Shown piece after piece: positions 3,791 to 19,367 of a DNA stretch of 32,000 bases. The stretch is from Caedibacter taeniospiralis. Its GTDB lineage: Bacteria; Pseudomonadota; Gammaproteobacteria; Francisellales; Francisellaceae. The DNA lies in the NCBI RefSeq assembly GCF_002803295.2, contig NZ_PGGB02000008.1, positions 30,001 through 62,000 of the forward strand. The letters are read 5' to 3'. Both the position numbers and the translations under genes were made by a program. Below the pieces are notes generated by a model. It was not told the DNA's origin. It searched no databases and worked only from the letters and a program-made list of their open reading frames with translations. Positions within the stretch are counted from its first letter, which is position 1; every line of letters begins with the position of its first letter.

Positions 3791-4627
3791 ATGGATTACA
3801 TGTTTAAGAAAATTACTGTTATTTTTTCGTTTCTGTTATTGGCGATGTCAGGCTTTCAATTAGCTGAAGCCAAACGCTTTGGCGGGGGATCAAGCCATGG
3901 TTACAGTCGCTCTGCCCCAGCACAGACACACAACACCGCGGCAGGCAGTGCAGCGCAAAAGCAAGGTGGCATGGGCATGTTTGGCAAGGTTCTAACTGCG
4001 CTTGGGCTTGGAGCGTTATTTGCCTGGCTGTTTAGCGCTCAAGGCATGACTGGAGTTTTAATCGTTGTGGCTTTAATTGCATTATTGATGTTCTTTATGC
4101 GTAGAAAAGCCATGCAACAAAATTCAGTTGCTAACACGCAACATAATGCGGCATACAAACAGCCATCCCCTTTGCATTCAGCGACCAACGCGTTTACCAG
4201 TCATCAAGTAAAGGAAGGCTCCACTCATGAGGAAGGGCAGGTTAGCAGTGCCATTAAAAATGGTCAGCTTCCTGACAGCACTCCTGAAACCGTATTTAAC
4301 CATCAAGCGCTTAACCTATTCAATCAACTGCAATCACTGAACAATAAAGCAGGTCTTGAAAAAATCAAAAGCTACATCACTGAAGACCTATATCATAGTG
4401 TCATCAGCGATATTGAGCAGAATGATGAGCTGGCGCAATTCAAAGACGTTAGCTGTAAAGTGGTTGATTGCGATCGCCAGGGCACTCAATGGATTGCCAG
4501 TGTCATGTTTGTCGGGCAGGTGCAAGAAGACAGCAATAGCGTATGGCAAAATTTTGAAGAAATCTGGCACTTTACGCGCAAAGATGGTGAACACCTGTGG
4601 CAAGTCGCTGGTGTTCAACAGTTTTGA
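3791..4627 (+). CDS. Tim44-like domain membrane protein
   Basis: 278 aa. Signal/anchor (FSFLLLAMSGFQLAEA), KRFGGGSS Gly-rich stretch, one TM segment (VLTALGLGALFAWLF...), and a C-terminal domain with the bacterial Tim44-homolog layout. Start could be ATG 3800 instead (better spacing from AGGGGA). Confidence 0.7.
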   Translation: MDYMFKKITVIFSFLLLAMSGFQLAEAKRFGGGSSHGYSRSAPAQTHNTAAGSAAQKQGGMGMFGKVLTALGLGALFAWLFSAQGMTGVLIVVALIALLMFFMRRKAMQQNSVANTQHNAAYKQPSPLHSATNAFTSHQVKEGSTHEEGQVSSAIKNGQLPDSTPETVFNHQALNLFNQLQSLNNKAGLEKIKSYITEDLYHSVISDIEQNDELAQFKDVSCKVVDCDRQGTQWIASVMFVGQVQEDSNSVWQNFEEIWHFTRKDGEHLWQVAGVQQF

Positions 4628-4732: not shown

Positions 4733-5161
4733 ATGGAAACGACAACAATTGAGCTAAAGCCCTCTAAAGCGAAAATAATTGTAGTATCGCTACTTTTTAT
4801 GATTTCATTTTTTATCGTTTTTTATTTATTGCATGCGTGGTTTTTCTATTTAGGGCTATTGTTCTGCCTGTTTGCCGCAATGGGTAGCCTCATGAGTTAT
4901 TACAGCAAACAGAAAATTAATTGTATTCATGTGATTGAAACTGCGTACGCACGAGAAATAAATATTCTCTATGCTAAAACATGGCTTAATAATATATTCA
5001 TTGAGCGTTATATGCTGGTTGCGGGCGTTATTTACATGAAGTTAAGGGTAGCCCAGCATAAACCGATAAGGCTTTGGCTATTTAGGGATAATTTTACAAG
5101 CCTGGAAGCTCGCTACCAGCTCATTAAGGTGTTAATGTTGGCAAAAGATAGATTAAAATAA
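4733..5161 (+). CDS. Small inner-membrane protein, YgfX/CptA-like (DUF1434-like)
   Basis: 142 aa with two N-terminal TM helices. The C-terminal motif ..IRLWLFRDNFTSLEARYQLIKVL parallels E. coli YgfX ..HLWLAADSMDEAEWRDLRRIL as I recall it. Similarity judged by eye only. Confidence 0.45.
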   Translation: METTTIELKPSKAKIIVVSLLFMISFFIVFYLLHAWFFYLGLLFCLFAAMGSLMSYYSKQKINCIHVIETAYAREINILYAKTWLNNIFIERYMLVAGVIYMKLRVAQHKPIRLWLFRDNFTSLEARYQLIKVLMLAKDRLK

Positions 5162-5249
5162 ATGATCTCTAAATTATAAAAATGAATTTTTATAATCATT
5201 CACTCTCTGCTATCGTCTGTTTTCCGTTTTGAAGAATCGAAGTCCTGGA

Positions 5250-7112
5250 ATGAAGTTATCAAATATTGAAATTGTTATTGCTAATAGCACACACTGCCGT
5301 TTTGCCGAAGCGATTTCCAGACAAATTGAAGAGAGCGCCAAACAAAGAAAGACAGGTATTGCAAAGCGTAGTGTAAGCTATCTGCAGGGCAAACTACGCA
5401 CGCAACATGCGGTCATTGCGATTGATCAGCTGTTAAATACGGTGGCTGGTTTTTGCTACATAGAATCCTGGCAAGATAAGCGTTATGTCTCCAATTCAGG
5501 ACTCATTGTTTTTCCCGCCTATCGAAATCTGGGCTTATCAAAGATGATAAAAAACAAGGCATTTGAACTTGCGAGAACCTATTACCCAGAGGCTAAGATT
5601 TTTGGTTTAACCACCAATCCGCAAGTGATGCACATCAACTATGAATTAGGCTATGAGCCTGTAGCATTCACGGGACTGACTACCGATAAGACATTTTGGC
5701 AGGGGTGCAAGAGTTGCGTTAATTTCCCTATTTTACAATCAAAAGAATATCAAAACTGTCTGTGTACGGCGATGCTGTATGATCCTGTGAGAAAACAAGC
5801 ACAAAGAGAGCAGCAAAAGGAGCAGAAAATGAAAGTAATCGTCGCTTTTAGTGGAGGATTGGATACGAGTTTTTGTGTCAAATATTTGCAACACGAACAT
5901 GGGCTTGAAGTGCATACTGTCACCGTCAATACGGGTGGTTTTAGTACGATTGAGCTGACAGAAATTGAGAAGAAAGCGTATCAACTGGGGGCTAAAACAC
6001 ATCAATGTATTGATGCAACTAAAGATTTTTATCAGCAATGTGTGAAGTTTTTGATTTTTGCGAATGCGCTAAAAAATAACTGCTATCCCCTGTCGGTGAG
6101 TGCTGAGCGCACCTTTCAAGCCATGACAATCGCTAAAGCCGCTAATAGCATGGGCATCAGTAAAATCGCACATGGATGTACGGGAGCGGGGAACGATCAG
6201 GTGCGCTTTGATCTTATGTTTCATATTTTGTGTCCTCATATTGAAATTATTACCCCTATCAGAGATTTAAAACTCTCGCGCAGCAAAACTCAGGATTATT
6301 TGATTAAGCATGGAATTGCCTGCTCACAAAGCACAAAAAATTATTCAATCAATAAAGGCTTATGGGGAACTTCTGTGGGTGGTGTTGAAACCTTGACTTC
6401 TCATTTATATTTAACGGATGAGGCATGGCCAACGGGGCTAAGTAAAAGCACAAATGAAGCAGAAATGCTGAAAATTACTTTTATAAATGGTGAGCCGATT
6501 GCCTTAAATGATGAGTTATCCAATTCCATCCAAGTCATTCAAAAACTTAATAGCATTGCCAGCCAATACGGTATTGGACGTGACATTCACATCGGCGATA
6601 CCATTATTAATATCAAAGGACGTGTAGGCTTTGAAGCTGCGGCTCCATTGATATTGATTAAGGCGCATCACCTGTTGGAAAAACATGTACTGACTAAGGC
6701 GCAGCTTAAAATTAAAACCCTGCTTACCGACACCTATGCCGAGATGGTGCATGAGGGTCAGTTTTTGGATCCTGCAGTACGAGATGTTGAAGCACTATTA
6801 TTGTCATCACAAGCAAAAGTAACAGGAGATGTTTTCGTACTGCTTAAGCCATACCACTTTGTGCTGTTAGGCGTGCAATCTGAGCATGATTTAATGCAGG
6901 CGCAAAGTGCCAAATATGGAGAGGAAAACACAAGCTTTAGCGGTAATGATGTCAAAGGCTTCACTAAGGTGATGAGTAATCAGTTAGCCACCTATTACCA
7001 GCTACAAAACAACCTCAAAGTGACCAAGTCACTGGAGTTGCGTACTTTTACTGATTTTGACGACTACCCCGTCCGCTTCGCGTCCACCCCTTCGCTAACG
7101 AAGGGGAATTAA
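5250..7112 (+). CDS. argG: Fusion protein: N-terminal GNAT-type acyltransferase (arginine-cluster type) plus argininosuccinate synthase
   Basis: Track ORF starts at TTG 5229; ATG 5250 (MKLSNIEIV..) is more likely. Residues ~1-190 resemble the GNAT gene that precedes argG in Bacteroidetes (..SAKQRKTGIAKRS..AGFCYIESW..SGLIVFPAYRNLGLSK..). From MKVIVAFSGGLDTSFC (5829) onward it is ArgG (HGCTGAGNDQVRFD, SINKGLWGTSVGG). The last 27 codons and the stop lie inside the MITE at 7031-7230. Confidence 0.85.
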   Translation: MKLSNIEIVIANSTHCRFAEAISRQIEESAKQRKTGIAKRSVSYLQGKLRTQHAVIAIDQLLNTVAGFCYIESWQDKRYVSNSGLIVFPAYRNLGLSKMIKNKAFELARTYYPEAKIFGLTTNPQVMHINYELGYEPVAFTGLTTDKTFWQGCKSCVNFPILQSKEYQNCLCTAMLYDPVRKQAQREQQKEQKMKVIVAFSGGLDTSFCVKYLQHEHGLEVHTVTVNTGGFSTIELTEIEKKAYQLGAKTHQCIDATKDFYQQCVKFLIFANALKNNCYPLSVSAERTFQAMTIAKAANSMGISKIAHGCTGAGNDQVRFDLMFHILCPHIEIITPIRDLKLSRSKTQDYLIKHGIACSQSTKNYSINKGLWGTSVGGVETLTSHLYLTDEAWPTGLSKSTNEAEMLKITFINGEPIALNDELSNSIQVIQKLNSIASQYGIGRDIHIGDTIINIKGRVGFEAAAPLILIKAHHLLEKHVLTKAQLKIKTLLTDTYAEMVHEGQFLDPAVRDVEALLLSSQAKVTGDVFVLLKPYHFVLLGVQSEHDLMQAQSAKYGEENTSFSGNDVKGFTKVMSNQLATYYQLQNNLKVTKSLELRTFTDFDDYPVRFASTPSLTKGN

Positions 7113-7230
7113 TGGAGAAGCTTTCCAAAAATTCCCCTTCACTGGTGAAGGGGTGCCGAGCCTGCCTGACCACTCCAGAGCGGTCAGGTCTGCGAGGCGG
7201 GGTAGTGCAGCAAAAGTGCGTAACTCCAGT
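7031..7230. mobile_element. 200-bp MITE-like palindromic element with terminal inverted repeats and a 5-bp target-site duplication
   Basis: TIRs ACTGGAGTTGCGTACTTTTACTG (7031-7053) and the reverse complement of CAGCAAAAGTGCGTAACTCCAGT (7208-7230). Direct repeat AAGTC at 7026-7030 and 7231-7235. Internal hairpins at 7087-7106, 7134-7153 and 7165-7188. No coding capacity of its own. Confidence 0.7.
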
Positions 7231-7271
7231 AAGTCAGATGTGGCAAATGCAATGATAACAGGATAGTGGTT

Positions 7272-8255
7272 ATGGAAGAGAAGCGTATTACAACAGAGCG
7301 TAAAATCAAAGTAGGAGTCATGGGTGGGGCTGGGTATACGGCTGGTGAGCTTTTACGCATCTTAATGCTCCATCCAAAAGTCGAGGTTGTGTTCATTCAT
7401 AGTGAATCAAAACAAGGTGAACTCATTGCTGCAACTCATCATGACTATTATTTTATTGATGATAAACGCCGATTTGATGGAGAAATTCATCAAAATGTTG
7501 ACGTGGTTTTTTTATGTGTTGGTCACCATCAAGCGAAAGCAACACTCATCAAGCATGTCTTCAACCCAAAGACAAAGATAATCGATCTAAGCCAGGATCA
7601 TCGTGATACAAAACAAAATCCGACATTCATGTATGGTCTGGCAGATGTTGAAAAAAAACGCATAGCCTCAGCGCAGAACATTGCCAATCCTGGTTGTTTT
7701 GCTACGGCAATCACACTGGCACTTGTGCCTTTTTCTGCCCATTTTGAAGGTGATATTCACATCAATGCGATTACTGGCTCAACGGGGGCAGGGGTCATGC
7801 CAAGGGACACCTCACATTTTAGCTGGCGTTCAAACAATATTTCGGTTTATAAGGCATTTAGTCATCAGCATTTGGTAGAGATAAAGCAAGCGCTGAAGCT
7901 TCCTGACACAAGCCAGCTTCTTTTTATTCCAATGCGTGGGAATTTCAGTCGCGGCGTTTTTGCCTCTGTTTATTTTAAATCGTCATTAACTGAGCAAGGC
8001 GCCAAACTGTTATTGCAACAATTTTACGAGGACAGCCTTTTTGTCAAAGTACTTGAGCATGAACCCGATTTGAAAATGGTCGTGAACACCAATGCCTGTA
8101 TGTTGTCGATTAAAAAGCATGGGGATTATTTGCATATTGTCAGTGTTATTGACAATTTAATTAAAGGCGCTTCAGGACAGGCTGTACAGAATATGAATCT
8201 GATGTTTGGGTTACCTGAAGCGTTGGGGCTAAGGTTCAAAGCAAGCGTATTTTAG
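7272..8255 (+). CDS. argC: N-acyl-gamma-glutamyl-phosphate reductase
   Basis: KIKVGVMGGAGYTAGELLRIL Rossmann N-terminus and catalytic Cys in ANPGCFATAI. Bacteroidetes-like short form. Start is ATG 7272 or GTG 7266; the GTG would overlap the reconstructed pre-MITE argG stop. Confidence 0.9.
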   Translation: MEEKRITTERKIKVGVMGGAGYTAGELLRILMLHPKVEVVFIHSESKQGELIAATHHDYYFIDDKRRFDGEIHQNVDVVFLCVGHHQAKATLIKHVFNPKTKIIDLSQDHRDTKQNPTFMYGLADVEKKRIASAQNIANPGCFATAITLALVPFSAHFEGDIHINAITGSTGAGVMPRDTSHFSWRSNNISVYKAFSHQHLVEIKQALKLPDTSQLLFIPMRGNFSRGVFASVYFKSSLTEQGAKLLLQQFYEDSLFVKVLEHEPDLKMVVNTNACMLSIKKHGDYLHIVSVIDNLIKGASGQAVQNMNLMFGLPEALGLRFKASVF

Positions 8256-8283
8256 GTTTTGCCAGAATTTTCACCAATTTTGA

Positions 8284-8345
8284 TTGGCATAAATGTAGGG
8301 GCGTATTGCATACGCCCTTGTGATCAGCAATAAGGTCAATGCCAA
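8284..8345. repeat. REP-like nested hairpin between argC and argF' (same family as 3497-3665, opposite orientation)
   Basis: Outer stem TTGGCAT (8284-8290) / ATGCCAA (8339-8345). Inner hairpin GGGCGTAT-TGC-ATACGCCC (8299-8317). Its reverse complement, TTGACCTTATTGCTGATCACAAGGGCGTATGCAATACGCCCCTAC, aligns with 3501-3545. Confidence 0.6.
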
Positions 8346-8375
8346 ACAATTCATTCAAAAAAACAGGAGCAAAAC

Positions 8376-9389
8376 ATGCAACAGTATTTAAGTATTAAAG
8401 ATATCGACAATATCCAGGAGGCGATTCAATCGTGCATTGAAATCAAGAAAAGCCCTCATGAGAGATCGAGTTTGGGAAAAAATAAAACACTGGGTATTAT
8501 TTTTTTAAATCCAAGCTTACGCACCAAAATTTCAACCGTTAAAGCCGCACAGAATATCGGTTTAAATGTTTTGCCGATCGATGTCAACAGCGGTTGGGCG
8601 CTTGAATTTGAAGAGGGTGTGGTGATGGATGGGGATAAGCCTGAACATATTAAAGAAGCTGCTCAAGTGATCGCCAGTTATTGCGATATGGTTGCTATTC
8701 GTTCCTTTGCAAAACTCCAAGATAGAGAGAAAGATTATCAAGAGCAAATATTTAATGCTTTTAAGAAATACACTGATTGTCCGATAGTTAATTTAGAGTC
8801 GGCATTGCGTCACCCCTTGCAAAGCCTTGCTGATATTTTGACGATTGAAGAGTACAGGAAACGTAAAAAAATAAACAGACCCAAGGTCGTATTAAGCTGG
8901 GCGCCACATGTTAATCCTTTGCCGCATGCGGTAGCAAACTCCTTTGCCGAAGCTATGCAGCTTATGGACTACGATTTTGTGATCACGCACCCTGAAGGTT
9001 ATGAACTGGATGTTGAGTTTACGGGAGGTGCGCAAATTTGCTATGACCAAGACGAAGCGCTGAAAGATGCAGATTTTATTTATGTAAAAAATTGGTCAAG
9101 CACCAAAGAGTACGGCAAAGTGACTAACAAAGACCAAAACTGGATGATCAGTGAAGCCAAACTTAACCATGCTAAGAATGCCAAGGTGATGCACTGCTTA
9201 CCAGTAAGACGCAACGTGGTGATTGCTGATGATGTGCTTGATTCTCCGCGATCTATCGTGATTGAACAAGCGGAAAACAGGCTTTACGCTGCGCAATATG
9301 TGCTATCTGAAATGGTGTCAGCGTTCAAGTATAAAGATCAAGCGGTGATAGCGACTACTGACGAGGTTTATGCAGATGGCATTAAGTAA
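8376..9389 (+). CDS. argF': N-acylornithine carbamoyltransferase, predicted N-succinyl-L-ornithine type (ArgF')
   Basis: NPSLRTK (not STRTR), RHPLQSLAD (not HPTQ), SWAPHVNPLPHAVANSFAE, ITHPEGYELD and MHCLPVRRN match the Bacteroides fragilis ArgF' sequence as I recall it. DGDKPEH carries Pro89 (8640-8642) at the acyl-specificity position. Confidence 0.85.
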   Translation: MQQYLSIKDIDNIQEAIQSCIEIKKSPHERSSLGKNKTLGIIFLNPSLRTKISTVKAAQNIGLNVLPIDVNSGWALEFEEGVVMDGDKPEHIKEAAQVIASYCDMVAIRSFAKLQDREKDYQEQIFNAFKKYTDCPIVNLESALRHPLQSLADILTIEEYRKRKKINRPKVVLSWAPHVNPLPHAVANSFAEAMQLMDYDFVITHPEGYELDVEFTGGAQICYDQDEALKDADFIYVKNWSSTKEYGKVTNKDQNWMISEAKLNHAKNAKVMHCLPVRRNVVIADDVLDSPRSIVIEQAENRLYAAQYVLSEMVSAFKYKDQAVIATTDEVYADGIK

Positions 9390-10194
9390 AACGGCTAACG
9401 TGATTAAACTGGGAGGACGCGTCATGGATGATCAGTTGGAATTAAACGCATTATTAAAAGCGATTTCGCTTTGGCAACATCCGTGCATTATTATCCATGG
9501 CGGGGGTGAGCAAGTCAGTAAACTCAGCAAAGACTTAGGACTTAAACCACAATTTATCGATGGGCGGCGCGTCACGGATAAAGCTTCTTTAGAACTTGTG
9601 ATCATGATCCTTGCAGGTCTTATTAATAAAACACTGGTTGCCAAGCTTCAAGCTAATGGCGCTAATGCTTTTGGTTTAAGTGGTGTTGATGCAAATCTGT
9701 TGTTAAGCGAGAAACGCGGCATTGAAAAACACGATTTTGGCTTTGTCGGTGACATGAAGTGGGTCAATGTGAGTGTATTAATAAATATGTTAGACAGTGG
9801 TTTATTGCCCGTACTAGCACCCATCACACATAATGGCAGTGGGCAGCTGTTAAATACTAATGCCGATACGGTGGCGTATGAGGTTGCAAAGAGTATGGCA
9901 AATGTGTGCGATTACCAGGTTAGTTTGTATTACTGCATGGATTTGCCTGGAGTGTGTGAGAGCGTAGAAAATCCGCAATCATTGATTGAAGAGCTTGATC
10001 TAAGAGGCTATCAGGATTTGCGCACGCAGGGCAAAATTCATCAGGGGATGCTGGTAAAGCTTGAAAATTGCTTTAGTGCGATAGAGTCTGGGGTCAATAA
10101 AGTCGTGATCAGTAATGCACAAAATATAGCAAAAGCGTTGGTGAATGAACCACATAAGGCAACCACGATACAATTAAAAGAGGCAGTGAATTAA
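9370..10194 (+). CDS. argB: N-acylglutamate kinase
   Basis: VIKLGGRVMDD.., IIIHGGGEQVSKL, FIDGRRVTD and NTNADT are amino-acid-kinase family motifs. Overlaps the argF' 3' end; ATG 9376 is an alternative start. Confidence 0.85.
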   Translation: MQMALSKTANVIKLGGRVMDDQLELNALLKAISLWQHPCIIIHGGGEQVSKLSKDLGLKPQFIDGRRVTDKASLELVIMILAGLINKTLVAKLQANGANAFGLSGVDANLLLSEKRGIEKHDFGFVGDMKWVNVSVLINMLDSGLLPVLAPITHNGSGQLLNTNADTVAYEVAKSMANVCDYQVSLYYCMDLPGVCESVENPQSLIEELDLRGYQDLRTQGKIHQGMLVKLENCFSAIESGVNKVVISNAQNIAKALVNEPHKATTIQLKEAVN

Positions 10195-11310
10195 ATGGAA
10201 ACTGAAGTTTTAGCCCTGGAAGCATTGCGCGCGCAGATAGCCGAAAAACAGCAGCAAGCGTTAAATTTATTAACGTCTTTAATAGGAATTCCATCGATTT
10301 CAACCGAAGAAGAAAAAAGTGCGCTGTTTATTCAGGCGTGGTTAGCAAAGCATAAGATTCCATCCACGCTTATTGGCAATAATGTCTGTGCTAAAAATAA
10401 GTATTTTGATCAAGAGAAACCTTCGATTTTATTGTTATCTCATCACGATACCGTGCCACCTGCTAAGAGTTACACGCGTGACCCCTATCATGCCGAAATG
10501 ATCGAGGGCAAATTATACGGTTTAGGCGCTAACGACGCAGGGGGAGCATTGGTAAGCCTAATCACGGCATTTACCCACTTTTACAACATGCAAAACTTAC
10601 CCTTTAATCTCTTGTTGTGTGCAGCTGCGGAAGAGGAAATTTCTGGCAAAAATGGCGCCGAGCTTGCTTTGCCTTTTTTTGGTGAAATCGACTTTGCCAT
10701 CGTCGGTGAGCCCACGAGTATGGAGCTTGCTGTCAGTGAAAAGGGACTCATGGTGTGCGATTGTGTGGCGCATGGCAAAACAGGGCACGCCGCACGCAAT
10801 GAGGGAGATAATGCGATATTAAAAGCCGTTAGCGACATTAACTGGATCACAGGTTATCAGTTTGAAAAAACCTCGCCAACCTTGGGTGTGGTGAAGATGA
10901 GCGTGACGGTGATAGAGGCGGGAGTAAAACACAATGTCGTGCCAGAGAAATGCCATTTTGTTGTCGATGTGAGAACGACAGACGCCTACGGCAATGAAGA
11001 AATATTGGCGATCATGCGTCAATATATGTGCGCGGAAATCACGCCAAGATCAATGAGAATTAGACCCACGGCAACCCCACTTGATCATCCACTGATGCAA
11101 GCGCTTTTGGCTAAAAATATCAAATCTTACGGTTCACCAACCACGTCAGATCAAGCGATACTGAATTGCCCAAGCGTTAAATTTTCACCTGGGGATTCAA
11201 AGCGCTCACACAGTGCCGATGAGTTTATTTATGTTGCACAAATTAACGAAGGCGTGCAGTTTTTTATTGAATTTTTTCATGAACTAAAGGATCAACCATG
11301 GCGGAAGTAA
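10195..11310 (+). CDS. argE: M20-family deacylase (ArgE-like; acetyl/succinyl-ornithine or -citrulline deacylase)
   Basis: 371 aa. LLLSHHDTVP, metal-ligand region AAEEEISG and GHAARNEG are typical of the ArgE/DapE M20 peptidase family. The ATG directly follows the argB stop. Confidence 0.8.
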   Translation: METEVLALEALRAQIAEKQQQALNLLTSLIGIPSISTEEEKSALFIQAWLAKHKIPSTLIGNNVCAKNKYFDQEKPSILLLSHHDTVPPAKSYTRDPYHAEMIEGKLYGLGANDAGGALVSLITAFTHFYNMQNLPFNLLLCAAAEEEISGKNGAELALPFFGEIDFAIVGEPTSMELAVSEKGLMVCDCVAHGKTGHAARNEGDNAILKAVSDINWITGYQFEKTSPTLGVVKMSVTVIEAGVKHNVVPEKCHFVVDVRTTDAYGNEEILAIMRQYMCAEITPRSMRIRPTATPLDHPLMQALLAKNIKSYGSPTTSDQAILNCPSVKFSPGDSKRSHSADEFIYVAQINEGVQFFIEFFHELKDQPWRK

Positions 11311-12713
11311 ATGAGAATATACAGCACAGGCAAAAATTATGGGGAGGGCGTTTTACGGAAGAAAATAACCCTTTGTTTGTGCGCTTTAATGAGTCATTAA
11401 GCGTTGATTATCGACTGCTGCCCCATGATATAAAAGCCACCAAGGCATTTACACAAGCTTTGAGTGAGATAGCCGTTTTGTCAGAGAAAGAGTTGCATAA
11501 GCTGCATCAGGCACTGGATGAAATCGAGAAAGAAACTCGTGAAAATCCATCATTAATCCAACAAGCAATCTATGATGGCGTTGAGGATGTCCATACTTTT
11601 GTTGAGCAAAGCTTAGTGGATAAGATAGGAGAGCTTGCCTACAAGGCAAATACAGGGCGCTCACGCAATGAACAGGTTTCATGCGCCACAAGATTATGGG
11701 TGCTTGAGCACATTGATATATTGCTCCATTTAACCAAAGCCTTACAAAATGCGTTGGTTGAACAGGCACAAGAAAACATTGATGTGGTTGTCATGGGTTA
11801 TACCCATTTACAGCAAGCACAACCGATTACCTGGGGGCATTATTTTTTATCGTTTTATGAGATGTTTAAGCGTGATTGCGCACGCCTTTTAGATGTGAAA
11901 AAGCGCGTAAATATTTCACCACTAGGCATGGGGGCGATTGCAGGTAATTCATGGAATCTTGATCGCAAGAAAATGGCTGAAAACCTTGGATTTGCTGATA
12001 TTGTGCAAAACAGCTTAGATGCGGTAAGTGATCGCGATTATATTATTGAGCTTTTAGCGAATATTAGCTTGATTGGCGTACATTTAAGCCGCTTCGCAGA
12101 AGATATGATTATCTATTCAAGTAGTGAATTTAACCTGGTTGAAATGAGTGATTTGGTGGCGACGGGTTCATCGTTGATGCCGCAAAAGAAAAACCCGGAT
12201 GCGATGGAGCTCATACGCGGTAAAGCAGGACGCTTAAACGGATATCTCATTGCACTTTTAACAACAGTTAAAGGATTGCCATCGGGCTATAACAAGGATT
12301 TACAAGAGGACAAAGAAGCCTTATTTTTGGCGGTTGACAGTGTAAGCAACATGATTAAGGTGACAACGATCACCGTTCAAAGCTTAACTATTAAGCGTAA
12401 TAAAAACTATGATCATAGCTTGTGTGTGGCAACTGAACTTGCGGATTATCTTGCCAGAAAGGGGATTCCCTTTAGAAAAGCACACCATATCGTCGGACAG
12501 CTTACAGCTTACGCTTTGGCTTGTAGCAAGTCATTAAGCCAGTTGAGTCTTGGCGAATTTCGACAGTTTTCAGCTGAGATTAAAGAGGATGTTTATCCAA
12601 TATTAACGATTGACTCAGCCATTAACAGCAAAACAGCCATTGGCGGCACAGCAGTTGCAAATGTTGCGCTAGCCATAGCAGAAATTAACAGGGATATTGA
12701 AAACGGGATGTAA
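11298..12713 (+). CDS. argH: Argininosuccinate lyase
   Basis: KLWGGRFTE N-terminus, GYTHLQQAQPITWGH, and the fumarate-lyase signature GSSLMPQKKNPD. SD AAGGA lies 6 nt upstream. Overlaps the argE-like 3' end by 13 nt. Confidence 0.93.
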   Translation: MAEVNENIQHRQKLWGGRFTEENNPLFVRFNESLSVDYRLLPHDIKATKAFTQALSEIAVLSEKELHKLHQALDEIEKETRENPSLIQQAIYDGVEDVHTFVEQSLVDKIGELAYKANTGRSRNEQVSCATRLWVLEHIDILLHLTKALQNALVEQAQENIDVVVMGYTHLQQAQPITWGHYFLSFYEMFKRDCARLLDVKKRVNISPLGMGAIAGNSWNLDRKKMAENLGFADIVQNSLDAVSDRDYIIELLANISLIGVHLSRFAEDMIIYSSSEFNLVEMSDLVATGSSLMPQKKNPDAMELIRGKAGRLNGYLIALLTTVKGLPSGYNKDLQEDKEALFLAVDSVSNMIKVTTITVQSLTIKRNKNYDHSLCVATELADYLARKGIPFRKAHHIVGQLTAYALACSKSLSQLSLGEFRQFSAEIKEDVYPILTIDSAINSKTAIGGTAVANVALAIAEINRDIENGM

Positions 12714-12764: not shown

Positions 12765-13247
12765 CTAAAAATAGTGCGGTGAACTTTGCGTTTGCAAAGT
12801 TGCTTGAAGCACCATTGCATCTTCATGCTTATCACCAACGCGATAATAGTTTTTACGTATGGAAATCTGCTGAAAGCCATATTTTTTATAAATACTGATA
12901 GCAGGAATATTACTTACCCTTACTTCAAGAAAAAGTTTTTCAGTCTGTTTGTACGACAAATGATTCATTAAATAAGCTAACAGCCTCTGACCAAATCCTT
13001 GGTGTTGGTAGTGTTTTGCCACCGAAAAATTCAAGATTTCAGCTTCATCAAAAATGACGGATACAATCACAAACGCAATCAGGTGGTTATTTAAATCAAA
13101 AAGCCCCCACGTCTCCGTATGAGCGGAGAGAATACTGTCTTTCATTTGCGATGCCGACCATGGATATTCAAATACCTCACGCTCAATATCCATGATTTGT
13201 GGCAAATGATTTTCACTTAGGGGCAAAATCTGATACTGCATAGACAC
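12765..13247 (-). CDS. rimI: Ribosomal-protein-alanine N-acetyltransferase
   Basis: 160-aa GNAT (..EAEILNFSVAKHYQHQGFGQRLL..). Sits downstream of and overlapping a holD-like gene, as in E. coli. Confidence 0.8.
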   Translation of the reverse strand: MSMQYQILPLSENHLPQIMDIEREVFEYPWSASQMKDSILSAHTETWGLFDLNNHLIAFVIVSVIFDEAEILNFSVAKHYQHQGFGQRLLAYLMNHLSYKQTEKLFLEVRVSNIPAISIYKKYGFQQISIRKNYYRVGDKHEDAMVLQATLQTQSSPHYF

Positions 13248-13632
13248 TCATCATCGTTTGTTTTTTAACCTCTGCACAATTTAACTTATCAATGTTGATT
13301 GCAAAGCTTCCTGCATGCGGGTTTTCATCGAGGAAGTTTGCCAAGTCCAAGCTTTCATCATAAAGAATTATTGTGTTTGAAGCGATCACTTTTTCCAGCG
13401 CTTTATCATTTACCTCTATATAGCACACATCCTTGCATGAAAACATAGCCTTTAGGAAGGTAGAAAGTAACGTTTCTTGAGATGCTAAGCACAAAATAAC
13501 ACATAGCTTATTTGTGTCGACCATATGTGCGTGGCTGACAAATTCAGCATTATTTTTCTTTTGCCGTTTTACCTGCCATTGCGTAATACTCAAATGCTGT
13601 AAAATCGCGTATTGTCTCTCTCCCTTGGTCAT
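13213..13632 (-). CDS. holD: DNA polymerase III psi subunit-like
   Basis: N-terminus ..ERQYAILQHLSITQWQVKRQ resembles E. coli HolD RRDWQLQQLGITQWSLRRP as I recall it. ~139 aa, overlaps rimI. The track start 13635 is TTG; the ATG is at 13632. Confidence 0.6.
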   Translation of the reverse strand: MTKGERQYAILQHLSITQWQVKRQKKNNAEFVSHAHMVDTNKLCVILCLASQETLLSTFLKAMFSCKDVCYIEVNDKALEKVIASNTIILYDESLDLANFLDENPHAGSFAINIDKLNCAEVKKQTMMSVYAVSDFAPK

Positions 13633-13638
13633 CAATGA

Positions 13639-13959
13639 TTAAATTCCAATGCTTGATAATAAATTACAAATGGAACGCACAGCGTGCGTAACCCTGGGGT
13701 GGCTAGCTTCGTATTCGATTATTGCCTGTTCCAAATCACTAAAATCAGTCTCTTTGGGATCCTGCAATTTACTCACTTGGATTCTTTGCTTCACCAAGTC
13801 TGCGATTTCAATTGCTTGAGCCTTTTTTTCCTGAGGAAGACTCTCTAGTTCAGCTTGCAATTGATCTAGGAGATCGGATAGATTTTCTATATCGGAAAAA
13901 TTAAGTTTATCTGAATTTTTGAGTATCGCTTTAATCTCAGTAATCGTATCTTTTGGCAT
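13639..13959 (-). CDS. DUF4404-like small protein
   Basis: C-terminal ..EYEASHPRVTHAVRSICNLLSSIGI fits the DUF4404 pattern (E.SHP......L...GI). GGAG lies 7 nt upstream of ATG 13959, so that start is preferred over track start 13995. Confidence 0.5.
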   Translation of the reverse strand: MPKDTITEIKAILKNSDKLNFSDIENLSDLLDQLQAELESLPQEKKAQAIEIADLVKQRIQVSKLQDPKETDFSDLEQAIIEYEASHPRVTHAVRSICNLLSSIGI

Positions 13960-14029
13960 ACTTTGACTCCAGGTCCAACGGTTAGGTTGTTTCATTCTAT
14001 GGGCAAAAGGGGGTGTTTGACAATTAGCT

Positions 14030-15019
14030 TCAAGGGAATAAATTAATTTTATTTGGACAACGCAAAATACTATCGTAATTATGCAGGTTATACTTCTCTA
14101 CAAGACGCTTACAAACTTCAATTGCTCTTAATGAATTCCCATGCTTATCCAGTCTTGGAGAATAGATGGCAATACCCATCCTATCTGGCACAACTACGTA
14201 AATCCCCCCAGACACCCCACTTTTTGCAGGCAACCCGATTGAAAACGCCCATTCTCCCGAATAGTCATACATGCCGCAGGAATACATCAAAGATAAACAG
14301 TTTTTTGTCGTCTCAGGCTTAAAAACTTCTCTACGTGTCAATGGGCAACTTCCCGCATTGGCAAAACCTGCTGCAATAACTGAAAGAACCTCAGTATTTA
14401 ACTCGATTGAACACGCCTGAAAATATAGATTAAGCGTCTGATGCAGATCGGTATTTTTAGGGAACGCATGATGTTCGCGCATGAAATAACCCAAAGCATA
14501 ATTACGATCTGCCGTGTCCTTTTCTGAATTATATACCGCATTGTTAAAGGTGATCTTTTGACTATTACTCAACTCATGTAATGCTTTCATAATATGATTA
14601 AACTTACTCGCGGGATTCGCTTTGCGTTTGATCATGGAGCATGACATAATCGCTCCTGCATTAATCATTGGATTATGTGGCAACCCTTCGTCATTGAGTG
14701 TCAGCTCATTGAAGTTTTTTCCACTAGGTTCGCGACCCACATGCTTATGCACATGACTCAATCCATTTTCCTCCAACGCCAGTGCATACAGCACAGGCTT
14801 CACCATCGATTGCATGCAAAAGCGCGCCTTATAATCCCCCACACTAAACTGCTGACCATCTGTCGTGCATACAGAAATAGCAAACTGCTCAGGGTTCACT
14901 TTTTTAAGTTCTGGAATATAACTTGCCACTTTGCCACTTTTATTTAATTGCAGATCCTGGTAAATCTCTGCCAAATAGCCACAAAAATCCTTGAAGTTGA
15001 CTGACATTATCACACGCAT
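14030..15019 (-). CDS. glsA: Glutaminase A
   Basis: 329 aa. ASYIPEL, MQSMVKP (the S-x-x-K region), NPMINAGAI, AKSGVSGGI and SPRLDKHGNS are glutaminase family motifs. Confidence 0.9.
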   Translation of the reverse strand: MRVIMSVNFKDFCGYLAEIYQDLQLNKSGKVASYIPELKKVNPEQFAISVCTTDGQQFSVGDYKARFCMQSMVKPVLYALALEENGLSHVHKHVGREPSGKNFNELTLNDEGLPHNPMINAGAIMSCSMIKRKANPASKFNHIMKALHELSNSQKITFNNAVYNSEKDTADRNYALGYFMREHHAFPKNTDLHQTLNLYFQACSIELNTEVLSVIAAGFANAGSCPLTRREVFKPETTKNCLSLMYSCGMYDYSGEWAFSIGLPAKSGVSGGIYVVVPDRMGIAIYSPRLDKHGNSLRAIEVCKRLVEKYNLHNYDSILRCPNKINLFP

Positions 15020-15112
15020 TTCTAATATTGAAAATGCACCTTATTCTACTTCAATATTTTTATTTTGAAAGCGCTGTTATGTTCTGTTAAACATTTTGCA
15101 CCCCGAACAACA

Positions 15113-15514
15113 TTATAGCGACGGTGAAAAACAGCGTTGAGTTAAATAGAACCCAATAGCAACAGCGATAAGTGAAATGACAACGCTCAGCACAATATAG
15201 CTCAACGCCTTTAACCATTCGCCTTTTTGCAGCAACATCAGCGTGTCTAAGCTGAAACTTGAAAAGGTGGTAAAACCACCCAAAAAACCTGTCACCACCA
15301 AGGCGCGCAAATGGTGCGTTGCCATGTTTAGAAAAAAACGCTCTTGCAACAAAAGGGCTGCCATGACCCCAATGAGCAGGCATCCGACCACATTGATAAA
15401 TAAAATACCAAATGGGAAAGACCTGCCTAAGTATTTAGCCGCCAACTCAGCAACCCAGAAACGGCTGATTGAACCTAAACTACCACCTAGACCAACTAAC
15501 AACACAGCTAACAT
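15113..15514 (-). CDS. crcB: Fluoride ion channel CrcB/FluC
   Basis: 133 aa, four TM segments. GSLGSISRF, NVVGCLLIG and GFLGGFTTFSSF are CrcB signatures. SD AAGGAG lies 7 nt upstream. Confidence 0.9.
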   Translation of the reverse strand: MLAVLLVGLGGSLGSISRFWVAELAAKYLGRSFPFGILFINVVGCLLIGVMAALLLQERFFLNMATHHLRALVVTGFLGGFTTFSSFSLDTLMLLQKGEWLKALSYIVLSVVISLIAVAIGFYLTQRCFSPSL

Positions 15515-15545
15515 AACGATTCTCCTTTAAGTTTTTTTAAAAAAA

Positions 15546-15619
15546 CAGACGTCATCAATCTTAAAGGATGGTTTAAGCCAGAACGTTTAAGCTCAGCCTG
15601 GGAAGAACGTCATTTCCCC
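15546..15619 (-). promoter_or_regulatory. Candidate fluoride riboswitch (crcB motif) in the crcB leader
   Basis: Minus-strand RNA: GGGGAAAUGACGUUCUUCCC..(26-nt insert)..UUAAACCAUCCUUUAAGAUUGAUGACGUCUG. P1 is GGGAA/UUCCC. Loop GACGU can pair with 3' ACGUC (pseudoknot), in the same register as consensus GAUGGnnUUC ... AAACC-hairpin-UGAUGA-pk-CU. Located directly upstream of crcB. Confidence 0.55.
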
Positions 15620-15630
15620 AGCGCAATGCT

Positions 15631-15659
15631 ACCATAAAAATTTTATGCTACACAATCAA
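15631..15659 (-). promoter_or_regulatory. Candidate sigma70 promoter for the crcB leader
   Basis: Minus strand TTGATT (15659-15654), 17-nt spacer, TATGGT (15636-15631), ~12 nt upstream of the proposed aptamer. Confidence 0.4.
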
Positions 15660-15696
15660 TTCTTACAGTAAAAAAATGTGCATAACTCCAGTAATT

Positions 15697-16047
15697 TTAA
15701 ACCTGATGCAGACCATCCTTTCTGATAAATCGTCCACCAAGAATATGATAGTGTAAATGAAAAATGGTTTGACCACCCGCTCTTCCTGTATTAATTAGCG
15801 TTTTAAAGCCAGCATTCAAACCTAATGTTTCCGCAAGTTTAGGAATGGCAAGATTGATCTTTCCAACAAGTTCTAAATCCTTTTCTTCAACATGGTTTAA
15901 GCTATCAATGTGTTTTTTGGGAACGACCAGCACGTGCGTTTCAGCAACTGGAAAGGCATCGTGAAAGGCTAGAATATCACTGTCTTCATAGACTTTCTGC
16001 GTGTTTATTTCACCTCTAATAATTTTACAAAAAATACAATCGCTCAT
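15697..16047 (-). CDS. hinT: HIT-family nucleotide hydrolase (HinT-like)
   Basis: 116 aa. CIFCKII N-terminus and histidine triad HLHYHILGG. Confidence 0.9.
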   Translation of the reverse strand: MSDCIFCKIIRGEINTQKVYEDSDILAFHDAFPVAETHVLVVPKKHIDSLNHVEEKDLELVGKINLAIPKLAETLGLNAGFKTLINTGRAGGQTIFHLHYHILGGRFIRKDGLHQV

Positions 16048-16051
16048 TGTT

Positions 16052-17725
16052 CTAATCCTTTTGTTTTGAGATTAACGCATAAACTAATAGCACAACGCCA
16101 ACGCTACCGACTATTCCATAATGTTTAGCAAGGAATCGGTGAAGGTCATTTAATAATTCATTATTGTAACCGTAAATAATACCAAGCACAGTTAGCGAAA
16201 GTCCAAGACCTACCAGCACGCCACGCTTTTTTGACTGTTTTGGAGTTTTAGGCTGATTCATTTGGTTATTATCTTCAAACCTGGCTTTTTTAGCTTTACT
16301 ACTCAATAAATCAAACAACATCTCAGGGACATCAGGCAGGCGTTCACTTAAATCAGGAATGTTATCCATTGAACGCTTTGCAAAGCCTTTCCAGCCAACA
16401 CGTGTTTTCATCCATTTCTCCAAAAATGGCTTGGCAGTTGCCCATAAATTTAGCTCAGGATAAAGCTCACGCCCCAATCCTTCTATGTTAAGTAGTGTTT
16501 TTTGTAGTAGCACTAATTGTGGTTGAACGCTCATATTAAAGCGTCTGGCAACTTGAAATAAACGCATTAGCGTGTAACCAAAAGAAATTTCAGCTAAAGG
16601 CTTCTCAAAAATAGGCTCACACACGGTGCGAATGGCAGATTCCAGTTCATCAGCACGGGTGGCATACGGGACCCAGCCAGATTCGATATGAAGCTCGGCA
16701 ACTTTTTTATAATCACGATTAAAAAAAGCCAGAAAATTACCCGCAAGGTAATGCTGATCTTCACGCGTTAGCGTCCCAACGATGCCAAAATCAATCGAGA
16801 TATATTTAGGATCTTGAGGATCAGTGGCATCAATAAAGATATTGCCTGGGTGCATGTCAGCATGGAAAAAACAGTCCCTGAAGACCTGGGTATAAAATAT
16901 TTCAACACCACGCTCCGCCAAAAGCTTCAAGTCGGTATTAAGCAGTTTCAAAGTTTCAATATCCGAAACAGGAATACCTTTTATCTTCTCAATCGTCAGC
17001 AAATTATTGCGACAATATTGCCAGTATACTCCGGGGACATAATGGATATGACTATCCTTAAAGTTACGCTTAAGCTGCGAGGCATTGGCTGCTTCGCGCT
17101 GCAAATCAAGTTCATCTAACAGATTACGACTAATTTCTGCGACTACTTCCACAGGGCGCAAGCGCCTGGTTGCTGGGATATAGCGCTCTAGCATACGTGC
17201 AAGGGTTTTTAACAGTTCTGTGTCTTGAACCAGGATATTCTGGATATTGGGGCGTAGCACTTTAACAACCACTTCCTGACCGTTGGCTAGTGTTGCGCTA
17301 TGCACCTGAGCAATGGACGCGGAAGCCAACGGATTTACATCAAAGCTCATAAATGCTTCACTAATGGGCTGCTTTAACGCTTTTTCAATAACCTTGACAG
17401 CATATTCGCCTGAAAATGGGGGTACTTTGTCCTGCAGTTTAGCCAATTCACTGGCTAAATCCTGTGGCAATAAATCGCGTCTTGTGGAGAGTGCCTGACC
17501 AAATTTAATAAAGATCGGACCTAAGGTTTCAAGAGCCAGACGCAAACGCGTGCCACGATCAAGTATATTGCGAGCAAACCAGTAATAAGGATTAAAGATC
17601 AGCGTTATTTTAAGTACGCGCAACAACGGAAGATTTGCCATCATAGTGGTGACATTATATTTGTTAAGCACATAACCGATGTAGATCAGGCGCCACCATT
17701 TTCTGATTTTATTCATGTTTGACAC
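16052..17725 (-). CDS. ubiB: Ubiquinone biosynthesis atypical kinase UbiB
   Basis: 557 aa. LGPIFIKFGQALSTRRDLLP, ASIAQVH, FHADMHPGNIF and C-terminal TM helices. Follows ubiE-ubiJ as in other gammaproteobacteria. Confidence 0.92.
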   Translation of the reverse strand: MSNMNKIRKWWRLIYIGYVLNKYNVTTMMANLPLLRVLKITLIFNPYYWFARNILDRGTRLRLALETLGPIFIKFGQALSTRRDLLPQDLASELAKLQDKVPPFSGEYAVKVIEKALKQPISEAFMSFDVNPLASASIAQVHSATLANGQEVVVKVLRPNIQNILVQDTELLKTLARMLERYIPATRRLRPVEVVAEISRNLLDELDLQREAANASQLKRNFKDSHIHYVPGVYWQYCRNNLLTIEKIKGIPVSDIETLKLLNTDLKLLAERGVEIFYTQVFRDCFFHADMHPGNIFIDATDPQDPKYISIDFGIVGTLTREDQHYLAGNFLAFFNRDYKKVAELHIESGWVPYATRADELESAIRTVCEPIFEKPLAEISFGYTLMRLFQVARRFNMSVQPQLVLLQKTLLNIEGLGRELYPELNLWATAKPFLEKWMKTRVGWKGFAKRSMDNIPDLSERLPDVPEMLFDLLSSKAKKARFEDNNQMNQPKTPKQSKKRGVLVGLGLSLTVLGIIYGYNNELLNDLHRFLAKHYGIVGSVGVVLLVYALISKQKD

Positions 17726-18329
17726 CTTGTGCTGTTAGGTAACGCTCAAGCCTGGCTGTAACACGCTCAACATCTTGTTTGAGTTGCTGGACATCGGTAA
17801 AAAAGTCTTCAAGCTCTTCCTTGCAAGGGATCAGTTCTTTCTCATATTGGAGGTATTCTCTTAATTCGATCGGGAATTGCGCTTTGCTGACAAGCCACCA
17901 ATGCTTAATAGCATCAAACGGTTTGGATAACAATGAGCTTAATGTTGTTGTTTGCCCCTGCGTGAGCGTGAACATGAGATCAGGATGAATTGCCTTAAAA
18001 AAATCACGATATGCTTCAAGTACATACATATCGCCTTCAAATGATGCCTCCGCTTTTTGAATATAGCGCTGTGGACTGGCACTCAACGCCATAGCGATTA
18101 AAACACCTGAATCAGCGGAGAGTATATTTGTCTGATGTGTGCCATCCGCTACATCAAAGATTAAATTATCTGCGGTGGGGATTAAGCAAAAGCGCATTGC
18201 AAAATCATTTAACTGAATCGTCAATGTCCTTTGTTTCAGGCGATCCAGCAGATAGGATTTTTGAGGATCTAAACTCAGAATTTTGTCGAGCAGGAAATTG
18301 ATAGATTTCACGATCATAAGCTCTTTCAT
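17709..18329 (-). CDS. ubiJ: Ubiquinone biosynthesis accessory factor UbiJ (SCP2-like)
   Basis: 206 aa between ubiE and ubiB (conserved position). Length and C-terminal coiled segment fit; sequence similarity judged weakly by eye. Confidence 0.65.
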   Translation of the reverse strand: MKELMIVKSINFLLDKILSLDPQKSYLLDRLKQRTLTIQLNDFAMRFCLIPTADNLIFDVADGTHQTNILSADSGVLIAMALSASPQRYIQKAEASFEGDMYVLEAYRDFFKAIHPDLMFTLTQGQTTTLSSLLSKPFDAIKHWWLVSKAQFPIELREYLQYEKELIPCKEELEDFFTDVQQLKQDVERVTARLERYLTAQGVKHE

Positions 18330-18338
18330 ACGATCACC

Positions 18339-19106
18339 TTAATATTTTACGCCCATATGAAGGGCGACAACACCCCCTGTCATGTTTTGATATTCAACTT
18401 TGTCAAAACCAGCTCTTAGCATCATTTGCTTCAAAATTTCCTGGTCTGGATGTTTGCGAATGGACTCTGCCAGATAGCGATAACTATCAGCATCTTGTGC
18501 TATGAGTTGTCCCATAAAGGGTAATATTTTAAAGGAATATTGATCGTAAATCTCGCTTAATAATGGCATTATTGGCTTTGAAAATTCGAGCACCAGGAGT
18601 CGTCCACCTGGTTTTAATACGCGATACATCGAGGCAAGTGCTGCATCTTTATCCGTAACATTTCTAAGCCCAAATGAAATCGTAATGCAATCAAAGGTAT
18701 TCTCAGCAAAGGGTAGACATTCAGCATTGGCCTGAACATATTCGATATTGCCAATGCAACCGCGATTAGTCAGCTTCTCACGCCCAACGTCCAGCATAGA
18801 AGCATTAATGTCACTCAAAATAACCGTGCCCTGCTCTCCCACTTTTTGGGTAAATTGATAAGCCAGATCCCCTGTGCCACCTGCGAGATCCAGGATTTTC
18901 TGTCCAGGTTTAACTCCTGCCTTTTGAATAGTGATTTTTTTCCACAAACGATGAATGCCAAAAGACATCAGATCGTTCATGATGTCGTATTTTGCCGCCA
19001 CAGAATGAAACACTTCGGCAACTCTTTGCTGCTTATCTGCCCATTTAACTTCTTCAAAGCCAAAATGCGTGATTTTTTCTGAGTTATCTTGTAATCGTTT
19101 GTCCAT
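18339..19106 (-). CDS. ubiE: Demethylmenaquinone/ubiquinone C-methyltransferase UbiE
   Basis: The family N-terminus [45 protein letters not shown] begins at ATG 19106. SAM motif LDLAGGTGD. The track ORF extends 51 codons further upstream without family support. Confidence 0.92.
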
Positions 19107-19367
19107 AAATAGATTGATAGGGAAATGCTGTTGCCAGCCAGTATAACGTGAAAGCCTTAGTGAAACTACTGATGCGTTCGTCTTTATGCACAATACGGGC
19201 TGTGACTCAGCAATCCCGCCTGTTGCGCCAACTAGGTTCTGTGAACCAAAAAACCACATGAACCGAAGTTAGATTAATTTAGTTAAAAAATGATTTGAAA
19301 AATTGCAATCCTTAAGTCGACCCAAATTTAACTGTGATGGGAAAAACAACAAAAGGATTGCAGAACG

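Follow-up and report, generated by a model that had tools for sequence, protein, structure and literature searches.

The closest described relatives of the gene considered here are BT3761 of Bacteroides thetaiotaomicron and Cabys_1732 of Caldithrix abyssi, GNAT proteins that head arg operons and share more than 50% mutual identity (PMC8121099). Kublanov et al. described Cabys_1732, in an argAGCBEH locus, as a new isoform of N-acetylglutamate synthase (NAGS), citing unpublished data, and gave the distribution of this type as limited to Bacteroidetes and C. abyssi (PMC5317091). Liu et al. found that BT3761, which is 59% identical to Cabys_1732, is required for growth without arginine, is repressed by arginine and shows cofitness with argC, argG, argH and argB, and the function that they proposed for it is that of an N-succinylglutamate synthase (PMC8121099). 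The name ArgA2 comes from Ashniev et al., who reported co-occurrence with the succinyl-type carbamoyltransferase ArgF' in 190 Bacteroidetes genomes (PMC9026213), and an ArgA2-type enzyme is included in GapMind (10.1101/741918). We analyzed a stretch of 32,000 nucleotides from Caedibacter taeniospiralis (contig NZ_PGGB02000008.1, positions 30,001 to 62,000; hereafter, the window), in which a GNAT of this kind shares one open reading frame (ORF) with ArgG. The locus resembles those of BT3761 and Cabys_1732 in protein family, in that the GNAT gene comes first in an arg operon, and in the succinyl-type ArgF' partner; it differs in that the GNAT is covalently joined to ArgG and in that the organism is a gammaproteobacterium. 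We think it likely that this gene encodes a stable, bifunctional ArgA2-ArgG fusion that has retained an internal start, and that it yields both the fusion and free ArgG.

Two further kinds of described system invite comparison. Other GNAT glutamate acyltransferases are likewise joined to an arginine enzyme, namely H-NAGS (ArgH-short NAGS; Moritella and the Alteromonas-Vibrio group), NAGS/K of Xanthomonas and NAGS-ArgC of Haliangium (PMC4490483). Their partners are ArgH, ArgB and ArgC, respectively, whereas the partner here is ArgG; the GNAT of H-NAGS is C-terminal, whereas here it is N-terminal; and the GNAT lineage found here is only about 15-19% identical to the classical and short NAGS domains. 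We know of no report of a conserved internal start in any of these three fusions. In-frame internal initiation itself is familiar: E. coli IF2 alpha/beta, ClpB and CheA-L/S each have a Shine-Dalgarno (SD) sequence and a start codon within the ORF that give a shorter C-terminal product, and internal initiation giving N-terminal proteoforms has been surveyed genome-wide (bioRxiv 10.1101/520783). However, the short forms of IF2, ClpB and CheA are truncated isoforms, whereas the short form predicted here would be a complete and different enzyme, beginning at a former gene boundary.

The fused gene is a continuous ORF on the forward strand of the window, from ATG 5250 to the TAA ending at 7112, and its 620 codons comprise a GNAT part and a complete ArgG. 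Taken mechanically, the frame extends from TTG 5229 to 7112, but we placed the start at the ATG at 5250-5252 (MKLSNIEIV...), where all homologues begin and where there is little or no SD sequence. The ArgA2-type GNAT domain (residues 1-179; 5250-5786), a predicted N-succinylglutamate synthase, is followed by a linker rich in Lys, Gln and Glu (residues 180-193; 5787-5828), for which AlphaFold2 (AF2) predicts a helix of lower confidence (pLDDT 64-70), and then by the native part of the ArgG domain (5829-7031). The end of the ORF (7032-7112), with its last 27 codons and stop, comes from an inserted element that is described below. Pfam Arginosuc_synth and Arginosuc_syn_C cover residues 195-579, the ArgG part passes the TIGR00032 argG equivalog model (295.3 bits against a cut-off of 268.2), and the ATP-pyrophosphatase P-loop AFSGGLDTS is found at residues 199-207. 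The AF2 model of the full-length protein (pTM 0.58) has no confident interface between the GNAT and ArgG domains. At the junction, the ancestral ArgG initiator (ATG, 5829-5831) lies 579 nucleotides, or 193 codons, downstream of position 5250 and is thus in frame with the 5' start; it is preceded by the SD sequence AAGGAG (5817-5822) and the 6-nucleotide spacer CAGAAA (5823-5828). An earlier reading of the DNA, which we call the sequence-only reading, had described an in-frame fusion with this SD sequence, spacing and ATG, and both the architecture and the coordinates proved exact.

It is important to consider whether the long frame could be an artefact of assembly or sequencing, with a stop or frameshift missed between two genes. 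Errors or decay do occur in this group, in that a 96%-identical relative (L086) has frameshifts in the operon and a 477-residue annotation of the fused gene. However, the frame is open through the junction in all 16 gammaproteobacterial loci that we read as DNA, which are independently assembled genomes or metagenome-assembled genomes with different linkers of 27-108 nucleotides, and database entries of 620 residues, in a cluster labelled Caedibacter taeniospiralis, are 99% identical to the window protein. Because the frame is open in these related loci despite the variable linkers, this comparison, which the sequence-only reading had recommended in addition to re-sequencing, excludes a missed stop at the junction, and we give an artefact practically no credence. 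Judged from the aligned loci, the fusion is genuine and evolutionarily stable, and it has been kept with very variable linkers.

Searching with the full-length protein, we found the fused architecture in about 27 clusters at 90% identity. The fused relatives include proteins of Cysteiniphilum (79-81% identity), Fastidiosibacter lacustris (71%), Fangia hongkongensis (66%) and Facilibium (64%), and genome contigs show that several marine metagenome-assembled genomes also carry the fusion. Further fusions occur in a Calditrichia-like group (proteins P0136 and P0141, annotated Calditrichaeota/Calditrichia, with 50-53% whole-protein identity), in Blattabacterium and in other Flavobacteriales insect endosymbionts. 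A rough neighbor-joining tree unites the gammaproteobacterial fusions in a single clade (below, the gamma clade), sets the Calditrichia-like group apart and places the endosymbiont fusions next to unfused Flavobacterium genes, as their sister group. The separation of these three groups indicates at least three independent fusion events. The endosymbiont protein of 588 residues, named 'argininosuccinate synthase domain-containing protein', has the same ArgA2-ArgG layout and is about 51% identical, but it represents an independent event and has no Met at the junction. A census of fusions from representatives at 50% identity was discarded; it contained two fused proteins (P0241 and P0242), and since other fused proteins are absorbed elsewhere at this level, it gives no count. 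We found no published description of an ArgA2-ArgG fusion in the literature searched, and databases label the fused proteins only "argininosuccinate synthase".

As to the origin of the fusion, a gene for this type of GNAT lies directly 5' of a separate argG in all 70 Flavobacterium-type loci that we read (L011-L080). The existence of this pair makes it plausible that fusion occurred by loss of a stop codon between adjacent, separately translated genes, as the sequence-only reading had suggested. In these 70 loci, the two genes are in the same frame with 1-6 in-frame stops between them, and the GNAT stop lies 24-165 nucleotides from the region encoding the ArgG P-loop. The shared frame most likely reflects a ranking bias of the tblastn-based retrieval.

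The evidence that the internal start has been retained comes from comparing the junction in 16 genes of the gamma clade. Opposite the ArgG initiator, 13 of these have ATG and two have GTG (Fangia, L009, and L081); the remaining gene (L083) has AAG and lacks the SD sequence as well. Among the 15 genes that keep a start codon, 13 have an SD core (GGAG, GAGG or AGGA) 4-10 nucleotides upstream, in forms such as AAGGAG, AGGGAG, AAGGAGG, GAGGA and AAGGA, whereas elsewhere in these genes such a core is expected at 4.7% of sites. As a second background, we took 735 internal in-frame ATGs from the window and related loci; an SD-like core of at least 4 nucleotides at a distance of 4-10 nucleotides precedes 3.7% of these, and a 6-mer precedes 0.4%. 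SD sequence and start have been retained across genera whose proteins are only about 60-80% identical. At the first ATGs of ORFs in these genomes, SD-like cores show an enrichment of about 10-fold, so SD-led initiation is used.

Pairing with the anti-SD sequence agrees with these counts. In the window, the predicted energy is -1.0 kcal/mol at the 5' start and -7.9 kcal/mol at the internal start, compared with -5.4 to -7.4 kcal/mol for the other arg genes; over the window, Cysteiniphilum and Fastidiosibacter together, it ranges from -0.1 to -3.1 kcal/mol at the 5' start and from -5.6 to -7.9 kcal/mol at the internal start. However, duplex energy is an unspecific measure, with 14.6% of internal ATG or GTG codons at or below -6 kcal/mol, and therefore we relied on motif and spacing counts instead. 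In each of 13 genes, the mRNA near the internal start was predicted to fold more weakly than the average for the gene.

A rival account of the junction is that its SD sequence and ATG are a neutral relic, or a by-product of a linker rich in Lys and Glu, and that only the full-length fusion is made. The sequence-only reading, too, had called the site a fossil, while allowing that the locus could yield both the fusion and free ArgG. It is true that AAG-GAG simply encodes Lys-Glu in a linker rich in Lys, Gln and Glu, that part of the conservation is explained by common ancestry in a monophyletic gamma clade and that L083 has lost both the SD sequence and the start codon and yet kept the gene. However, several features of the junction are difficult to reconcile with a relic. 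In Cysteiniphilum, whose linkers are long (81-108 nucleotides) and rich in Lys, Gln, Glu and Asn, the junction motif is the sole SD-like 4-mer in six of the seven linkers and always lies 6-8 nucleotides from the start, so that composition alone is insufficient to account for it; the seventh (L001) has one extra SD-like 4-mer, 117 nucleotides upstream. Position -4 is occupied by AAG or by AGG, a rare codon (2-10% of Arg codons), and position -3 by GAG, although most other Lys codons of the linkers are AAA. The Met has been replaced only by Val encoded by GTG, in two lineages, and the flanking linker has diverged beyond alignment. In the independent fusions of other phyla, by comparison, there is no Met at this position and the residues found there are arbitrary.

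Several observations weigh against a working internal start and should temper these numbers. Because the gamma-clade sequences are related, the counts overstate the independent support. Two of the genes have only weak SD-like sequences at the junction (L082, with AAGGTG, and L085, with AGGA at 11 nucleotides), and the distant members L009, L081 and L082 have a reasonable SD sequence at the 5' start too. Moreover, the weak folding of the mRNA lacks significance in the window, where 35% of sequence windows fold as weakly as the internal start or more so. Given that SD sequence and start have been kept across linkers diverged beyond alignment, with exchange of ATG for GTG and with biased codons, we nevertheless consider it more likely that the junction is a working internal start than a fossil, which makes the suggested pair of products plausible on comparative grounds. 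A relic, with the fusion as sole product, we regard as rather unlikely.

Another alternative is that the SD-like sequence has no part in initiation and serves instead as a pause or structure signal, e.g., to let the GNAT domain fold co-translationally. SD-like motifs within ORFs have been proposed to slow ribosomes, although this is contested in the literature, and the motif does sit exactly at the domain boundary. A pause signal would, however, leave unexplained both the retention of ATG or GTG 4-10 nucleotides downstream and the joint loss of start codon and SD sequence in L083, and we consider it very unlikely. As to a separate argG transcript, we found no promoter-like site within 5250-5829, in a scan whose hits overall did not exceed those in shuffled sequences. 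A paper on the Dual-Seq transcriptome of Caedibacter does not mention arginine genes. In the loci that we read from Bacteroidota, the probable donor phylum, no comparable SD sequence precedes argG, so the junction SD sequence probably arose, or was preserved, in the gammaproteobacterial lineage.

On our reading, the gene would act as follows. The N-terminal ArgA2-type GNAT would make N-succinyl-L-glutamate from glutamate and succinyl-CoA, the first step of the pathway, while the ArgG half, tethered by the short linker, would act as argininosuccinate synthase in the second-to-last step. Because there is a strong SD sequence at the junction and almost none at the 5' start, the internal site would most likely take the larger share of the ribosomes. 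The single ORF would then give abundant free ArgG (427 residues, about 47 kDa) and a minor amount of the ArgA2-ArgG fusion (620 residues, about 70 kDa), two outputs that would keep ArgA2 scarce relative to ArgG, and mixed ArgG oligomers with a few acyltransferase domains could form. A more far-reaching possibility, which we offer tentatively and think more doubtful than not, is that this two-output unit has been under long selection, with fusion subunits co-assembling in ArgG oligomers, so that the first, flux-controlling acyltransferase is tethered at a fixed sub-stoichiometric ratio and ArgG serves as a scaffold or regulatory partner, as the kinase-like domain does in classical NAGS.

The role proposed for the N-terminal domain depends on its family. 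A search with the GNAT part gave more than 7,900 standalone GNATs of about 190-240 residues. The best 120 of these share 55-62% identity with it over 89-100% of the domain, and the entries that give a source name are from Bacteroidota. We assign the domain to the ArgA2/BT3761/Cabys_1732 family by homology, with the link to BT3761 (Q8A1A5) and Cabys_1732 drawn from published descriptions and from fused homologues annotated as Calditrichaeota/Calditrichia. General profile libraries were less informative: the match to Pfam Acetyltransf_1 falls below threshold (17.1 bits against 20.7), as does that to NCBIfam PRK07757 (25.8 against 154); Pfam and NCBIfam hold no specific model for this part, and a sequence search of the PDB gave no informative relative (best E = 0.0025). 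By contrast with these sequence searches, structure prediction was clear. An AF2 model of the GNAT part, built with 80 homologues, has a GNAT fold (pLDDT 91.3, pTM 0.84), and Foldseek found 639 PDB matches at E <= 0.001, the 50 listed all being GNATs with a probability of 1.00. The top matches include the NAGS structures of N. gonorrhoeae (2R8V), M. tuberculosis Rv2747 (5YGE and 5YO2) and Vibrio (3E0K), with TM-scores of about 0.55-0.61 and 15-19% identity. The fusion is not a classical two-domain NAGS (ArgA, with an amino acid kinase and an N-acetyltransferase domain), as a Pfam search found no AA_kinase domain in it. Within the GNAT alignments, R92 and G95 are invariant and belong to a CoA-type motif (R92-x-x-G95-x-S). 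A CxxC-x13-CxC cluster (C153, C156, C170 and C172; 5706-5765, forward strand) is likewise invariant, in 25 fused and 80 standalone proteins, and it may form a structural metal site. Such a site is, as far as we know, not usual in GNATs, and the cluster is not mentioned in the ArgA2-family literature that we examined.

The remainder of the operon helps to identify the pathway. The fusion heads an operon of the Bacteroidota type, argA2::G-C-F'-B-E-H, whose other genes follow directly downstream on the same strand (7272-12713). These are argC (7272-8255; TIGR01850, 268.9 bits against a cut-off of 233.6), argF' of the N-succinylornithine carbamoyltransferase type (8376-9389), argB, encoding acylglutamate kinase (9370-10194; TIGR00761, 199.9 against 151.3), a gene for an M20 deacylase of the ArgE/DapE family (10195-11310; Pfam M20 and M20_dimer) and argH, encoding argininosuccinate lyase (11298-12713; TIGR00838, 561.7 against 279.5). 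For the M20 deacylase, every NCBIfam model scores under its cut-off, and it is presumed to be the N-succinylcitrulline desuccinylase from its position in the operon and from earlier work (10.1101/741918). ArgF' is 63% identical to the N-succinylornithine transcarbamylase (SOTCase) of B. fragilis (1JS1, 2FG6; E = 4e-108), with a score of 364 bits to 1JS1 compared with 186 bits to the N-acetylornithine transcarbamylase (AOTCase) of X. campestris and 98 bits to ornithine transcarbamylase (OTCase). To recognize the succinyl type, we required Pro, Ala, Ser or Val at the specificity position, and ArgF' has Pro there, in DGDKPEH, aligned to Pro90 of the B. fragilis enzyme; the P90E mutant (2G7M) reads DGDKEEH. 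The identity to SOTCase and the diagnostic Pro support a succinyl variant of the pathway, in agreement with the sequence-only reading.

Despite this, it is possible to argue that the GNAT itself uses acetyl-CoA or another substrate, e.g., in regulatory acylation, and that the succinyl assignment is wrong here. The report of Cabys_1732 as a NAGS isoform (PMC5317091) speaks for acetyl-CoA and against our preferred donor. In the literature searched, we found no biochemical determination of acyl-CoA specificity for the ArgA2 family, and the profile matches of the domain stay below threshold, both of which leave room for another substrate. On the other hand, the cognate ArgF' carries the Pro that specifies succinylornithine and scores almost twice as high to SOTCase as to AOTCase, ArgA2 and succinyl-type ArgF' occur together in the Bacteroidetes genomes cited above (PMC9026213), and ArgB of B. 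fragilis has been reported as an N-succinylglutamate kinase (10.1101/741918). We therefore consider a substrate other than succinyl-CoA improbable.

The sequence-only reading had also stated that the enzyme for the first step of the succinyl pathway was not firmly assigned, and had taken the fusion as Rosetta-stone evidence that the GNAT is this missing enzyme. The first statement is outdated, as several publications place this family at the first step (PMC5317091, PMC8121099, PMC9026213 and 10.1101/741918), on the strength of comparative genomics and of genetics that includes fitness data and rescue by arginine. The second holds in part: the fusion corroborates the ArgA2 assignment, and its recurrence at least three times provides independent Rosetta-stone support for ArgA2 in the succinyl arginine pathway, but it is no discovery, since the family was assigned in 2017-2022. 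In other words, the "missing enzyme" question is not opened by the fusion and had already been largely answered. With the identity of the GNAT family known, the new element is the conserved internal start at the junction, and we regard the result as modestly novel. If the proposal is true, a former gene start that is still alive within a fusion would be a clean natural case of setting enzyme ratios after fusion.

Two other consequences concern distribution and annotation. The locus widens the range of the succinyl pathway from Bacteroidota and Calditrichia to Fastidiosibacteraceae, gammaproteobacterial relatives of Francisella, which the pathway probably reached by transfer of the operon. In addition, the present annotation conceals the first enzyme. 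Because the fused proteins are named only for their ArgG half, and because one RefSeq model has been cut to 477 residues, metabolic reconstructions of these genomes will list ArgA as absent.

Upstream of the fusion, a palindrome-like motif, TGAAT-N10-ATTCA (5183-5202, forward strand), is a candidate operator. It recurs among relatives (L001-L009), about 60-100 nucleotides before the fusion start, and an alignment of the window with six related upstream regions shows no change in its core, AATGAATTTT. It may be an arginine-responsive operator, although its spacing is unlike that of the canonical 18-bp ARG box. Cysteiniphilum has an extra perfect palindrome, TGATGAATTTAATTCATCA, upstream of the fusion, and three more distant loci (L082, L083 and L085) have a divergent LysR-type regulator gene instead of the motif. 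A consensus scan also gave a promoter-like site, TTGGCA-17-AATGAT (5138-5166, forward strand), but this is weak evidence, as such sites were no more numerous than in shuffled sequences.

The 3' end of the fused gene has been altered by an insertion resembling a miniature inverted-repeat transposable element (MITE). The element (7032-7230, about 199 bp, no strand assigned) was recognized from its repeats and from a break in blastn alignments. It has 23-nucleotide terminal inverted repeats (7031-7053 and 7208-7230), is flanked by a duplication of AAGTCA (7026-7031 and 7231-7236) and contains two GC-rich hairpins (7087-7106 and 7134-7153). It interrupts argG within the final codons and provides 27 new C-terminal residues and the stop codon; AF2 predicts this new tail to be disordered (pLDDT < 50). 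The original ArgG tail, DVANAMITG*, with its stop, is still present at 7237-7266, just before argC; a relative's protein ends in this tail. The element is absent from the 96%-identical relative L086 and from all other loci that we fetched.

In L086, a Caedibacter taeniospiralis-type contig, the arg operon (5560-9700 of that locus) is broken: the GNAT region has a frameshift, argF' has an insertion of about 466 bp and argC is present as two ORFs. The corresponding RefSeq protein, WP_395946165.1, is the 477-residue 'argininosuccinate synthase' and starts within the GNAT domain. This state of the operon could reflect pseudogenization in an obligate endosymbiont or sequencing errors in homopolymers.

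Upstream of the operon in the window are a small membrane ORF (4733-5161) and a gene for a Tim44-like domain protein (3791-4627). The small membrane ORF matches the CptA/YgfX toxin family below threshold (25.6 bits against 27.3), and the CptA-like region is apparently split into small ORFs in L086. Downstream, on the reverse strand (12765-19259), are ordinary housekeeping genes, including those for a RimI-like GNAT (12765-13247) and a glutaminase (14030-15019), and a ubiquinone-related cluster that encodes UbiB/ABC1 (16052-17725), an SCP2-domain protein (17709-18329) and UbiE (18339-19259).

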